Shown: positions 57,697-64,000 of the stretch, piece after piece
Layout: each line of letters begins with the position of its first letter
Numbering within the stretch: the stretch's first letter is position 1
Origin: an uncultured virus (IMG/VR IMGVR_UViG_3300028591_000115)
Lineage: Duplodnaviria; Heunggongvirae; Uroviricota; Caudoviricetes
Length of the DNA stretch: 64,000 nt
Direction: 5' to 3' (one strand)
Virus record (IMG/VR): IMGVR_UViG_3300028591_000115
Made by a program: the position numbers and the translations under genes
The notes under the pieces: generated by a model
The model's database searches: none
Told to the model about the DNA's origin: nothing
Seen by the model: only the letters and a program-made list of their open reading frames with translations

Positions 57697-57796
57697 AAAA
57701 AAATTGTTACAAAAGTATTAAACATTCAAAAAAGGGGTTGTAATGCAACCCCTTTTGTGGTATACTCTTATCAGATCAAGAGAGGAGGACACCACG

Positions 57797-58198
57797 ATGA
57801 CTTACTACTGGGACATGGACGGAGTGCTCGCCAACTTCCACAAGGCTTACGCTAATGACCGGGCTATCGCCCTCAAGCGTGAAGCGATGGCGAACCTTGA
57901 GCCCTTCATGGCCAACGTGGTTACCGTCCGGAATCTGATGGCTGAAGGCCACACCTGCTACATCCTCACCAAGGCCGCCAACGCTGAAGGCGCTGAAGGC
58001 AAGGTCGAGTGGCTCGCCAAGTACATCCCCGAGATGGACGAGGCCCACACCATCATCATCACCAAGGGCCGCAAGGTTGACAACATCCGTGAGGATGGAA
58101 TCCTGGTGGATGATGATGCCGCCAACACCCGGCAGTGGGAAAAGGCCGGACACAAGGCCATCCTCCTCACCACCAAGGGCGAGGCCGTCCGGATCTGA
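57797..58198 (+). CDS. HAD-superfamily phosphatase, 5'(3')-deoxyribonucleotidase-like (133 aa)
   Basis: WDMDGVLANF (motif I), ILT, K and ILVDD motifs; GGAGG RBS. Confidence 0.8.
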   Translation: MTYYWDMDGVLANFHKAYANDRAIALKREAMANLEPFMANVVTVRNLMAEGHTCYILTKAANAEGAEGKVEWLAKYIPEMDEAHTIIITKGRKVDNIREDGILVDDDAANTRQWEKAGHKAILLTTKGEAVRI

Positions 58199-60368: not shown

Positions 60369-60487
60369 AAAAAAAAGAGCGGGGATCGGACTCCCGCAAT
60401 GCCATCGGCTTTTGTTTTGCTGGGCTCGCCCGGCTCCGTGAGGAGCGCCCTAGAGGAGTGCCGGTGGATCACTACCATCTCCCTGTG
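60369..60487 (-). ncRNA. Putative small structured RNA, copy 2, with its own terminator
   Basis: Minus-strand TTGACA-17-TATCTT promoter; core ACTCCTCTAGGGC-hairpin-GCGAGCCCAGCAAAACAAAAG; terminator GCGGG..CCCGC plus T-run. Confidence 0.65.
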
Positions 60488-60654
60488 ACTATAAGATATC
60501 ATACTTTGCTCTATTTGTCAACTACTTTTTGCAATTTTCTTCAACTTTTTTTTGAAGAAAATAAATTGTTACAATTTTGTTAAATCTGCGAAAAAGGGGT
60601 TGTATTCTGATCCGATCTATGGTAATATAATGGTGCGAAAGGAAGGTGCTCTGA

Positions 60655-61089
60655 ATGAAGATCTGGTTCGACATGGATGGAACGATCGCCGATCTGTACG
60701 GCGTGACTGATTGGCTCCCGGCTCTGATCGCCGAAGATACCCGCCCTTACGAAGTGGCGAAGGGGATCGGCAATCTCGCTCTGATCGCTCGGCTCCTCAA
60801 CAAGGTGCAGGCGAACGGTCACGAGATTGGAATCATCTCTTGGACGGCTAAAGCCGGAACCGCCGGATACAACGCTCGGATTTACGCCGCAAAGGTTGGT
60901 TGGCTCGGCAAGCACCTTCCTTCCGTAAACTGGGACACGATCCTTGTCAAGCCCTACGGAACTGACAAGCGGGTTGCCACTGGTGGCGGGATCCTCTTCG
61001 ATGATGAGGAACCGAACCGGATCGGATGGGGCGAAGGCGCCCACACTCCTGCCGAGATCGTGGAAGTCCTCAAGGCTCTTACCAGATAA
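60655..61089 (+). CDS. Second HAD-superfamily phosphatase paralogue (144 aa)
   Basis: FDMDGTIADLY, IISW, K and ILFDD motifs. Confidence 0.75.
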   Translation: MKIWFDMDGTIADLYGVTDWLPALIAEDTRPYEVAKGIGNLALIARLLNKVQANGHEIGIISWTAKAGTAGYNARIYAAKVGWLGKHLPSVNWDTILVKPYGTDKRVATGGGILFDDEEPNRIGWGEGAHTPAEIVEVLKALTR

Positions 61090-61319
61090 GACAATGTCAA
61101 ATCTGGTAAACTAAAACTGACGCAGCACCCCTGACCTTCCTCCTTGGGTTGGGGGTTTTCCTTATTTTGTGGGCTGCGCGCCGGCGGTCGCCTGCGCGCA
61201 GTATTTCGGCTAATTAGGAGGATCAGAAAAAATTTTTTTGAAAAAGTTGTGAAAAAAGGGTTGACAGATTATCCCTTATCGTGTATAATGACTACAGTAA
61301 GAAACAGGAGGTAACCACC

Positions 61320-61493
61320 ATGAAGCTGATCGCCACCGTCAACAATCTCCCCGCCAACCTCTCCAAGTACGCTTGGATCACCGCTCGCGCTGTCGATGGC
61401 GAGCTCTGGTTCTACGGCGCTTGGTACGATGAGGATGGCGCTCGGGCTCAGGCTCGGGAGATCGACGGCATCGCCCTCAAGGTTGAGGGCTGA
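61320..61493 (+). CDS. Hypothetical small protein (57 aa)
   Basis: Perfect TTGACA-17-TATAAT promoter and AGGAGG RBS; ARAVDGELWFYGAW. Confidence 0.75.
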   Translation: MKLIATVNNLPANLSKYAWITARAVDGELWFYGAWYDEDGARAQAREIDGIALKVEG

Positions 61494-61560
61494 TGCTGAA
61501 AAAATTCAGCATCTATCCTGTTATAATAAGAGTGTAAGAAAGAGAGAGGAGTAAACGAAA

Positions 61561-61857
61561 ATGACTACCTACACCGATCTGATCCGCAAGATGGATAATC
61601 CCCGCTACGTTGGCAAGATGGACAAACCGGTCAAGCGGGTTAATAAAGTCTATGATCTGTTTATTGATGGATCTTACATCAAGACCGAATACCACAAGAA
61701 CAACGATCAGCTTGCTATTGGTCGGCTGATGGATCACGCTCGATACTACATCGACAAGATGAACCGGCTCGGCGGTGATCCCGCCGGTGAGATTGAGATC
61801 CGGATCACTGACAGGGATGGAAAAATTTCTTTCAAGAAATTTTCCAAAAACGCTTGA
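61561..61857 (+). CDS. Hypothetical protein (98 aa)
   Basis: AGGAG RBS; extended -10 (TGtTATAAT) upstream. Confidence 0.7.
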   Translation: MTTYTDLIRKMDNPRYVGKMDKPVKRVNKVYDLFIDGSYIKTEYHKNNDQLAIGRLMDHARYYIDKMNRLGGDPAGEIEIRITDRDGKISFKKFSKNA

Positions 61858-61912
61858 CAGGATCAAGCAAACCTGCTATAATGTAACCATCAAGAGAGAG
61901 GAGCGAAAGACA

Positions 61913-62188
61913 ATGACAAGCAAGAAATTCGCAGGACACGAAAAGGCCGCCGCTAAGATCAACTACTACGAAGACGGCTCCATGGAACTGGTGAGCTACA
62001 AGACCGTGGTTGCCACGGTTGACCCCGAAGGTTGGGTGCACCTCAACGGCCTGTACAGCATGACCACGATCAAGCACATCGGTTGGTTCGCCCGGCTGAT
62101 CGGTACGGACTACCACACGCTGAAAGGCCTCATGGTCGACCACAAGGACATGAACCTCAACACCGGCGAGGTGGTGGATTGGGAGTAA
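61913..62188 (+). CDS. Phage hypothetical protein (91 aa)
   Basis: Own promoter, RBS and terminator; LVSYKTVVA...YSMTTIKH pattern typical of small phage early proteins. Confidence 0.75.
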   Translation: MTSKKFAGHEKAAAKINYYEDGSMELVSYKTVVATVDPEGWVHLNGLYSMTTIKHIGWFARLIGTDYHTLKGLMVDHKDMNLNTGEVVDWE

Positions 62189-62350
62189 TCCCAATCCTTT
62201 TTCTTTTGAGCCGGTCGTTGCTGGGCGCGACGACCGGCATTTAGATTTTGGTAGGGTCTGCATAATTATACAATCGCATTGCATAAAAAAAGTGCTTGAC
62301 AGCCGATCCTGTATCTGGTACAATAGTGGTGGAAAGGAAGGTGCTACCCC

Positions 62351-62785
62351 ATGACTGAACTGACTGCGATCCGTGACTTCGTTGAGCTGATCACCGGCAT
62401 CCGCCCTGTGATCGCACGCAAGCGTGACGATTGGTCTGTTATTTCCGAAGCCGACTCCATGCGGATGACCGTCCCCACGGTCTACACCGGCTCCGAAACT
62501 GACAAGGCTTTCCGCAAGGACTTTGTGAGCCGTTGCCCTCTTGCCCGGGGCTTCGCTGATGTTACCATTAGCATCCTGCACGAGATGGGGCACTTCGCCA
62601 CCCGTGACAACTTCAACAGCGATGTGTACACCGCACAAGTTGAGGAAGCCGGCGCCGACATGGAAAAATACATGGCGATCCCTTACGAGATGCTCGCCAC
62701 CTGTTGGGCGATCTGTTGGCTGATGGATCCGGACAACCGGAAAGAAGCCAAAAATTTTGAGAAAAATTTCTTCGGAAGGGGTTGA
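62351..62785 (+). CDS. Putative HExxH zinc metallopeptidase-like protein (144 aa)
   Basis: ILHEMGH with downstream PYEMLA as a candidate third ligand. Confidence 0.65.
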   Translation: MTELTAIRDFVELITGIRPVIARKRDDWSVISEADSMRMTVPTVYTGSETDKAFRKDFVSRCPLARGFADVTISILHEMGHFATRDNFNSDVYTAQVEEAGADMEKYMAIPYEMLATCWAICWLMDPDNRKEAKNFEKNFFGRG

Positions 62786-62816
62786 CAAACCGCCCCGGAT
62801 CTGATACAATGATCAT

Positions 62817-63099
62817 GTTGAAAGGAGATGGTTCCGATGGGGATCGAAGCCCCCGGCCCGCAGGCAGGTGCGAAGCGGGCCACATGGGCGGGAGGTAAGC
62901 ACCCAGCCGGTTGAGGAGAGGGCCCCCAAGACCGGCAAGCGAACCTTGGCAAGTGAATGGAGGATGGCCACCGCCTTAAGAAGCCCCAGGGAGGCTGAAG
63001 CCGATTGCGAGAGCGCAAGTTGCTCGTGTAAGACCTTCAAACTCGGGAAACGAGGATGCCCCGAACCCTGTTGATACAGAGCCGAACGGCTCTTTTTTT
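62817..63099 (+). ncRNA. Putative ~280 nt structured ncRNA
   Basis: Promoter at 62782-62810 and terminator at 63079-63099; 5' GGTTC..GGGGATC can pair with 3' GAT.CCCC.GAACC; many short hairpins; only a 25-28 codon ORF. Confidence 0.6.
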
Positions 63100-63223
63100 A
63101 TTGGCCGAGCGTGCGCGGGCCACACGCTCGGCATTTGGGATCAGCTAAGGGTTCAGAAAAAAAATTTTGCAAATCGGCCAAAAAAGTGTTGACAAATGGC
63201 TCCCGTTATGGTATTCTATACTC

Positions 63224-63674
63224 ACCGGAAGGGGTTAGAGCCCGGGGCCACGGGTGCCAAAGCCGATGGAAGGAGCTACGCGCGGAGCGCCCCGCGCGCG
63301 GAAGAACCCGGGGGGTTGGAGTAGCGCACCAAGGGCCGAAGGCCAAGGCCGGATCTCCCGGGGCCGAAACTACTACGTTGAGGGTAGGCAGAGCCGGAAC
63401 ATCGGGTAGCCGAGCCGGTGGGGCCCATGAGAGCCTGTAAGACCTCCCCAATGAAACGACCGCAGGCCGAAGTCCTACTCTGCGGTATACGGGGCGAGGA
63501 ACCCCGGGGTCCGAAAGGGCTCAAATGTGCGGGCAACAACAGGGGAGCGTCTGGGACCCCGGGGCCAGTAGGATGGACGCAAAGGGTGGTAACCTGCCCG
63601 ACGAAGAGCCGGGCTTGAGACCTCAAGTGCGAGGACGAATAGCCAACAGAGGGATCAGCTGATCCCCCTTTTTT
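63224..63674 (+). ncRNA. Putative ~450 nt highly structured ncRNA
   Basis: Promoter at 63189-63217 and terminator at 63650-63674; end-to-end pairing, many GC stems and a 7 bp pseudoknot candidate; no RBS-led ORF. Confidence 0.7.
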
Positions 63675-63802
63675 CATTTGAGCTGGTCGCGGGCGGCCGC
63701 GCGCGACCAGTTTTCACGCTTCAGAGAGGATCCAGAAAAAAAGATTTGCAAAAGGCAGAAAAAAAGTGTTGACATCGGCTCCCGGATGTGGTATTATACT
63801 GT

Positions 63803-63912
63803 CAGAGGGAGAAGGCAGTGAACCGGCTGACACTCCTAAAGGGCGCCGAAAGGCAAGTGCGAGCCCCGCAAAACAAAAGTCACCGGCACGGGCGGGTCCG
63901 AACCGCCCACAA
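63803..63912 (+). ncRNA. Putative small structured RNA, copy 3
   Basis: Promoter at 63769-63797; core ACTCCTAAAGGGC-GCCGAAAGGC-aagt-GCGAGCCCCGCAAAACAAAAG; closing stem; 3' hairpin GGGCGG..CCGCCC. Confidence 0.65.
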
Positions 63913-63976
63913 AAAAGTTGTTGACAGATCATAAGGTCTGTGCTATAATGAAGCCATCAAGAGAAGGGAGCTAACC

Positions 63977-64000
63977 ATGATGAATACCGAAGTTATCAAG
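63977..64000 (+). CDS. Start of the next small gene (partial)
   Basis: Promoter at 63921-63949, GGGAG RBS and ATG at 63977. Confidence 0.5.

Follow-up and report, generated by a model that had tools for sequence, protein, structure and literature searches.

The 451-nt unit at 63224..63674 (+) of the window, by which we mean the whole 64,000-nucleotide stretch of viral DNA analysed here, is a non-coding RNA gene of the early region of a ruminant-gut phage. The unit is a fusion of a 5' module, a core of ~205 nt and a subfamily-specific tail, and the core, judged by comparison of its homologues, folds into two conserved domains with four crossing helices and represents an apparently undescribed phage RNA family. 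The original prediction, made from the letters of the window, had proposed a new or divergent large RNA class of ~450 nt closed end to end; the proposal of an uncatalogued structured RNA stands, and the single closed RNA of ~450 nt gives way to a ~205-nt two-domain core with separate 5' and 3' modules.

The unit is bounded by a sigma-70-type promoter and a terminator. The promoter, of the sigma-70/sigma-A type of the host (63189..63217, +), comprises TTGACA, a 17-nt spacer, TATTCT and an extended TG (10/12), and transcription would start near 63224; the intrinsic terminator (63651..63674, +) comprises a hairpin (63651-63666) and a U tract. Promoter-like sites of such quality number 9 in 4 kb, as compared to a mean of 2.2 in shuffled sequence, and the promoter of the unit is one of 9-11 of the same type across the surrounding cassette region. 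The GC content of the unit is 0.62-0.66, as compared to ~0.34 in late genes. The unit contains no ORF led by a ribosome-binding site, and its homologues share no conserved reading frame: among 93 parsed copies, the lengths of variable segments modulo 3 are distributed 34/23/36, the best sense frame is open in 20 copies and the best antisense frame is open in 49. We conclude that the unit, as read from its sequence, is a discrete non-coding gene running from promoter to terminator. The original prediction was accurate in its claims of a very GC-rich unit, of a promoter and terminator, and of the lack of an RBS-led ORF, and every motif that it named is found where it had been placed. GC-rich hairpins also follow terminators in the window.

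From ~57,000 onward, the window is organised in serial small cassettes, each with a near-consensus TTGACA-17-TATAAT promoter, and the unit is one of these; its promoter and its position point to early expression, as had been proposed. Early genes resembling HAD-type 5'(3')-deoxyribonucleotidases lie at 57743-58198 and 60655-61089 (+), and relatives of these genes adjoin the core RNA at several loci. In the late genes of this large tailed phage, TAG specifies an amino acid: with read-through, ORFs cover 0.86 of positions 1-54,000, as compared to 0.60 without it. Positions 1-54000 (−) hold structural and packaging genes with TAG as a sense codon, and tape-measure-like and other frames, of 3,133 and 4,046 codons, exist only with TAG read-through. 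A Firmicutes host is likely, because the terminase of the window is ~50% identical to terminases of Enterococcus and Geobacillus phages.

Comparison of four metatranscriptome runs, from three studies, with positions 61001-64000 places the unit in RNA-library contigs. The contigs cover 63105-63710 (X1), 63190-63529 (X2, from the same sample as X1), 63252-63572 (X8, from another strain) and 63451-63559 (X11); three span the 5' module and core, and the deepest X1 contig begins 84 nt upstream of the promoter. Such contigs report presence in RNA libraries, to which DNA may contribute, and not strand, ends, timing or level; contig depth was not used to rank genes, and uncovered parts were not taken as silent.

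Homologues of the core are numerous. A search with an 18-mer identified a 149-kb contig in which a stretch of 205 nt, flanked by a promoter and a terminator of its own, is 87% identical; the first 150 nt of the unit are missing from this homologue. Successive pattern scans yielded 5 stretches, then 40 (16 of them real), then 58 (42 loci at E<=3e-4 with model R1), and a metagenome pattern scan yielded at least 123. A scan with letters of domain II only gave 58 matches. The domain I strand lies upstream of 57 of them, a promoter is present in 56, and 53 have a pseudoknot partner of at least 6 bp; one of the 58 is a chance match. A scan with the window's own pseudoknot letters was set aside, since that strand varies and 16 of the 18 stretches returned were chance matches. 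The homologues comprise at least 140 distinct cores, in 71 groups after merging at 40% shared 8-mers, a count that is a floor and a set that is biased toward known members, the search patterns having been drawn from them. Across homologues the core is 162-210 nt long; in the window it occupies 63376-63580 (~205 nt).

Domain I (63376..63458; this and all following core features on the + strand) is predicted to consist of a helix, P1, with a kink-turn-like motif, followed by a three-way junction. P1 would pair 63376-84 with 63447-58 in the kink-turn-like segment and 63387-89 with 63441-44 at the junction; P2 is a variable hairpin (63393-63419), P3 (63422-63435) has an 8-nt loop here and a 7-9-nt loop in the family, and a GUAAG strand (63437-41) is almost invariant. 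Domain II opens with P4 (63459..63486), a hairpin with invariant CCGC/GCGG, the loop of which carries one strand of each of two pseudoknots, PK2a (63466-68) and PK1a (63473-79). P4 is followed by a conserved AUA...AAAUGUG element (63487..63529), which in this subtype contains a two-hairpin insertion (63490-63522) that is absent from 59 of the 93 parsed copies, and the bases after AAAUGUG provide PK2b (63532-34). The 3' part of the domain is an H-type pseudoknot in which P6 (63542-45 with 63557-60) and P7 (63547-51 with 63576-80) cross, with a UGRRA linker between them (63552-56), and which encloses PK1b (63567-73).

The structural case rests on covariation, because folding energy alone is at chance level: z is +0.20 for the unit, +0.07 for the core and +1.14 for the 5' module, and we rejected folding energy as support for any of the three (z is −3.3 for the compact homologue L010). 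For PK1, which the original prediction had noted as complementarity between TCCTACT and AGTAGGA, pairing of at least 7 bp is observed in 84 of 92 own pairings vs. 76 of 920 crossed pairings, with ~25 distinct strand pairs. In alignment A2, both sides change in all 6 of the 6 PK1 pairs, and pairing holds in 96.4% of cells, a level that 0 of 500 shuffles attain. The shuffle test ignores relatedness, but slid controls pair in 26-38%; the complementarity thus corresponds to a genuine pseudoknot. For PK2, which is absent from the original prediction and pairs the 5' side of the P4 loop with the bases after AAAUGUG, the counts are 117 of 125 own vs. 177 of 1,250 crossed, the 125 still including 3 non-members. 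P7 reaches at least 6 bp in 54 of 84 own vs. 78 of 840 crossed pairings, P6 shows swapped forms (seen without a crossed control), and the P6/P7 count leaves out 6 copies with a mis-picked partner. The UGRRA linker is present in 124 of 142 copies, as compared to 18 in a control stretch.

The domain I helices are invariant in close members, and hence uninformative there; in divergent members, 3 of 3 P3 pairs change on both sides, and swapped forms of P2 are seen by eye. The kink-turn-like motif is recognised in 48 of 93 parsed copies (a count without control). The P3 loop is mostly CCAYGNGA and varies in divergent members; this loop and the UGRRA linker are the two segments of the core that appear T-loop-like. 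The parsed set comprises 93 copies, 13 of 106 anchors having failed to parse, and pair counts of 93/93 within it are imposed by the parsing pattern and carry no evidential weight. The invariant bases of the core sit in junctions and one helix, and the pairing strands vary freely.

Other pairings in the original prediction fared unequally in the comparison. GCGTC/GACGC covaries, as an arm of a further pseudoknot and not as the simple nested stem that had been drawn; ACCGCAG/CTGCGGT is retained, 2 of its 6 pairs covarying and the other 4 being invariant; and in place of CGCGCGG/CCGCGCG a standalone copy has a different GC stem around a near-identical loop. The end-to-end stem finds no support, since in homologues, including two that have no 5' module, its 3' arms make local hairpins; in L183, the sole full-length relative, end-to-end pairing is still possible via G-U pairs. 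The stems GGTGC/GCACC and GCTAC/GTAGC likewise find no support: in L183 each is interrupted by a C-A mismatch, and the standalone copy has no counterpart of their 5' arms.

The 5' accessory module (63224..63375, +; conserved part ~63279-63369) has a structure that is tentative because it derives from 3 sequences. The module appears to contain a hairpin with an AGCGC loop and a long stem (63307-63317 with 63352-63362) that encloses an invariant segment together with a small hairpin, in the loop of which lies the palindrome GGCC. The module is 94% identical in L183. The complete phage G269, whose terminase is 95% identical, lacks the core but carries the module as a promoter-led cassette of its own, in which the stems show compensatory changes; a standalone form is also implied by loose contig ends in the RNA runs. 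A search of the viral collection with a pattern for the module matched the window's own record alone. The 3' tail (63584..63644, +) consists of subfamily-specific local hairpins (63596-63614 and 63621-63634) on the bases that had been proposed to pair with the 5' end; in 5 sequences, 3 of 15 tail pairs change on both sides, some via gapped rows. A UGGN segment of the tail is confined to one subfamily and appears paired.

The core is usually a standalone RNA: 71 of 91 copies begin within 40 nt of their own −10 box, 14 have a promoter further up, behind a fused module, and 6 have no promoter that was found. A descriptor of the domain I junction matches 16 sites in 1.14 Mb of carrier DNA, as compared to 0, 0 and 1 in shuffles. 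One of these sites is a divergent domain I junction at 62990-63038, in the neighbouring promoter-to-terminator cassette at 62816..63100 (+), which is probably a second uncatalogued RNA; in L148, the 5' half of that cassette is fused directly to a canonical core. The cassette is ~90% conserved in L041/L081, L209 and L230, and its 5' end has a candidate 25-codon frame behind a ribosome-binding-like site. The same junction also occurs inside a different RNA, in a paralogous family (L139, L184, L210, L153 and L225) in which the junction, enclosed by a GC helix, precedes an A-rich strand and then a 3' tail that is conserved; L217 and L256 contain related units. On the upstream or the downstream side of the core, further modules recur 5-12 times. 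Recurrent non-coding modules in L066, L141, L154, L182, L195, L243 and others (10, 12 and 5 distinct sequences) occur as cassettes of their own or as core fusions, and neither these modules nor the L139-type family matches Rfam, which gave only unrelated sub-threshold matches at E<=2 in 12 loci. A small promoter-led GC-rich cassette at 63800-63912 (+), with a 74% identical copy at ~60409-60494 (−) and a short motif that recurs in the 149-kb contig (G002), is possibly a third small RNA family.

The core has no fixed neighbour: 136 flanking ORFs fall into 88 clusters, the largest of which has 7 members. A tRNA gene lies closely downstream at 3 of 60 loci, and we rejected a link to tRNA genes on this count; the tRNA clusters of these phages lie tens of kb from the core RNA. 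At L085, L103, L091 and L112, tRNA-like sequences without an ARAGORN call directly precede or follow the RNA, and palindromes of ~19 bp lie upstream of promoters in L041, L131, L151, L152, L175, L242 and L247, instead of which the window has its GC-rich hairpins behind terminators. Tandem copies, and several copies per genome, occur. The 402-kb record G014, which may be a concatenated or chimeric assembly, has two near-identical RNA copies and two terminase matches ~205 kb apart.

Among large contigs picked by terminase, 6 of 30 have a strong match (3 of them known beforehand), as do 3 of 15 near-complete ones, and the core RNA is therefore accessory. Five named phages with related terminases, including Phass-1, give no model match (one at E=0.5); in cultured and GenBank phages the unit is without a match, and two homologues give chance matches only. 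A search for a host chromosomal counterpart in 185,579 species genomes gave 4 pattern matches, of which 2 fall within coding sequence and the 2 real ones lie on phage-like contigs. A search of 251 genomes with model R2 found real matches on phage-like contigs only, a result that is a floor, with 25-37 candidates scored per genome and one genome unscored. No reverse transcriptase was found in 5 carrier records with PF00078 (positive control detected), one model that distant reverse transcriptases may escape; within that scope, the core lacks the partner expected of a retron, DRT or DGR RNA. OMEGA/HEARO RNAs adjoin IscB, IsrB or TnpB genes, whereas core loci have no conserved neighbour gene, and no TnpB/IscB was found in the 79 of 137 G003 ORFs scanned with Pfam. 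Beside its tRNA cluster, G003 (L270-L271) encodes a DUF2828/DUF7788 protein, an RNA ligase, a kinase-like AAA_33 protein and phosphoesterases, which looks like an RNA-repair set; DUF2828 presumably resembles Ro60/TROVE.

Comparison with known RNA families yields no assignment. Rfam 15 gives 0 matches in the window at the gathering cut-off, and only unrelated sub-threshold matches at E<=10 in 62700-64000 and at E<=5 at 4 homologue loci; the scan covered, among others, OLE, HEARO, SRP, tmRNA, group I/II introns, ribozymes, riboswitches and T-boxes, and in the 149-kb carrier it returned tRNAs only. ARAGORN found no tmRNA, with its tRNA-like domain and tag frame, in the window or at 60 loci. The absence of RNase P, tmRNA and SRP signatures in the original prediction thus agrees with Rfam and ARAGORN, and the Rfam comparison that it had proposed, with GOLLD, ROOL, raiA, introns and RNase P, likewise leaves the unit unassigned. 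Short likenesses to raiA, c-di-GMP-I, cobalamin, SAM-I, pistol, RNase P and 16S rRNA were discarded, no model matching.

The nearest known RNA in size and spirit is raiA, which, in the portion of its description available to us (PMC12968392), is like the core compact, ~200 nt long and of Bacillota, with at least 2 pseudoknots, a kink-like bend and optional stems. In the same source, however, raiA is chromosomal, and has a P1 that closes 5' to 3' with GU and GGU bulges and an UUAGACGUAA linker, whereas the core has two domains in series and four crossing helices and is found on phage-like contigs only. The end-to-end stem that would correspond to the raiA P1 is unsupported, and the UUAGACGUAA linker is absent from alignments A2 and A4. 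ROOL and GOLLD, as far as the consulted parts of two papers go (PMC5737381, PMC12286853), are likewise ornate pseudoknotted RNAs of Firmicutes phages and prophages, ROOL having first been found in rumen, but are 580 to over 800 nt long, lie near tRNA islands and form cages; the core, by contrast, falls far short of ~580 nt, keeps apart from tRNA clusters, occupies early cassettes with promoters, takes part in a shuffling of RNA modules and gives no model match. T-loops like those of T-box stem I, RNase P and the L1 stalk (PMC4810234, parts consulted) may have counterparts in the core, which also has a kinked P1 and two T-loop-like segments, but no T-box specifier loop or antiterminator and no RNase P conserved regions; no T-box model matches, the core is not in leader position, and tRNA binding is hypothetical.

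In the literature, six signature 15-16-mers are unmatched, and a search by topic, with most subscription papers outside its scope, found no description of the core RNA. The 8,495 automated phage RNA candidates of PMC10690425 (consulted in part) show no match in 4 of 9 supplementary files; overlap with its alignments is possible, and fragments of the family may sit unrecognised among these candidates. The newness concerns the architecture and the family, and the function may be of a known kind.

We tentatively favour, at somewhat less than even probability and by analogy, the hypothesis that the core RNA is accessory, made early and active in trans, and that its shape lets it bind a host factor of translation or defence. 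According to this hypothesis, host RNA polymerase would transcribe the unit right after DNA entry, the bend in P1 would probably dock the three-way junction on the invariant P4/AAAUGUG surface to give a compact particle, and this particle, a decoy or mimic in takeover, would use its shape to bind a host macromolecule; the putative target would most likely be a translation, tRNA-handling or anti-phage factor. The core RNA is not a leader, because it ends at a terminator or at the next promoter, and, because it has neither a leader position nor a fixed partner gene, it presumably acts in trans. Freely varying pairing strands together with invariant junction bases suggest that a three-dimensional surface is recognised, and argue against antisense pairing. 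Patchy presence among close relatives (the 6 strong matches in 30) suggests a host-specific advantage, and such presence is typical of host-specific counter-measures. A decoy or mimic is favoured by analogy with pseudo-ToxI of phage phiTE and with RNA anti-CRISPRs, which, in the part of PMC12926258 consulted, are phage RNA decoys that are non-coding and act in trans on a host factor, as is proposed here. Those decoys copy a host RNA repeat, whereas the core has no host counterpart in the searched genomes, is far more complex and, lacking an Rfam match, resembles neither ToxI nor CRISPR repeats. It also counts against the decoy reading that ribozymes and riboswitch aptamers would be expected to show near-invariant junction bases just as much (PMC5737381, in part).

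Near-invariant junctions would suit a new ribozyme class that cuts fused modules or downstream tRNAs out, or alters transcript ends. We take the nested pseudoknots around an invariant A-rich strand to resemble pistol, HDV-like and glmS ribozymes, and the fusion of the core to varied upstream and downstream modules, with the tRNA genes that closely follow it at a few loci, would provide substrates; nevertheless a ribozyme is unlikely, since no Rfam ribozyme family matches, most copies are an entire transcript with little to process, and the tRNA clusters are distant. The same build, at 165-205 nt with a kink-turn, a three-way junction and conserved junction bases, fits an aptamer, and the RNA might be a riboswitch-like sponge, in trans, for a small signalling molecule or metabolite; no riboswitch family matches, there is no expression platform and no consistent downstream gene, we know of no precedent for an RNA sponge of such kind, and we consider this quite unlikely. 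Another candidate is a trans-acting tRNA clamp, in which the P3 loop and UGRRA linker would interlock, bind tRNA elbows and shield or sequester tRNAs. The prevalence of UGRRA in the P7-P6 linker and of CCAYGNGA in the P3 loop speaks for a clamp, as do the 13-25 tRNAs encoded by 4 of the 5 large carrier records scanned and a P1 that we take to be kinked as in T-box stem I. Single T-loops, though, are common internal tertiary motifs, divergent members vary the P3 loop, no T-box or RNase P model matches, there is no specifier loop, and the tail UGGN appears paired and is limited to one subfamily. The consulted part of PMC4810234 describes the interdigitated T-loop motif as portable and likely to recur, which favours a clamp; taken together, we regard this reading, too, as quite unlikely.

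An oligomerising RNA-only scaffold like the ROOL and GOLLD cages would share their broad setting, rumen phages of Firmicutes, and would accord with the palindromic loop segments conserved in the 5' module and with tandem and multiple copies per genome. The core, however, is about one third the length of ROOL (581 nt on average; PMC5737381, in part) and as a rule is not in tRNA islands, and the palindromic loops belong to a module absent from most members, all of which makes a cage very unlikely. A part in the machinery for converting the cell to TAG as a sense codon would be consistent with TAG read-through in the late genes of 9 of 11 carrier virus records examined (the window and 8 others), and the consulted part of Borges et al. 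(bioRxiv 2021.08.26.457843) leaves room for 'novel types of RNA molecules' in code change. We consider such a part extremely unlikely: carriers G009 and G011 look standard-code in 60 kb of each, which breaks the link, G269, whatever its genetic code, is without the core despite its closely related terminase, and TAG recoding may simply be a trait of the clade. In the 149-kb contig, L272:3515-3606, within a 19-tRNA cluster, is a tRNA with a CUA anticodon and a likely TAG suppressor. A broader reading draws on the occurrence of the same three-way junction in at least three RNA contexts: the phages would possess a combinatorial toolkit of RNA domains, subject to duplication, fusion and reordering as protein domains are, with the four-pseudoknot core as its working unit, a new trans-acting tRNA clamp or ribozyme that seizes host translation in the first minutes of infection, and we hold this to be doubtful.

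Whatever the function of the proposed shape-binding RNA, comparative support for a complex fold is, as inferred from sequence, unusually strong. Where RNAs of bacteria and phages combine covarying pseudoknots at such density with invariant junction bases, most have proved to belong to core machinery or to be ribozymes or riboswitches; the few exceptions without a function, raiA, ROOL, GOLLD and OLE, are current targets of cryo-EM. With ~140 variants found in nature, a minimal form of 165 nt and a structure derived by comparison, the family is ready for probing, cleavage and binding assays. The shuffling of RNA modules between cassettes is unusual in itself, and it points to several more uncatalogued RNAs in the same phages.
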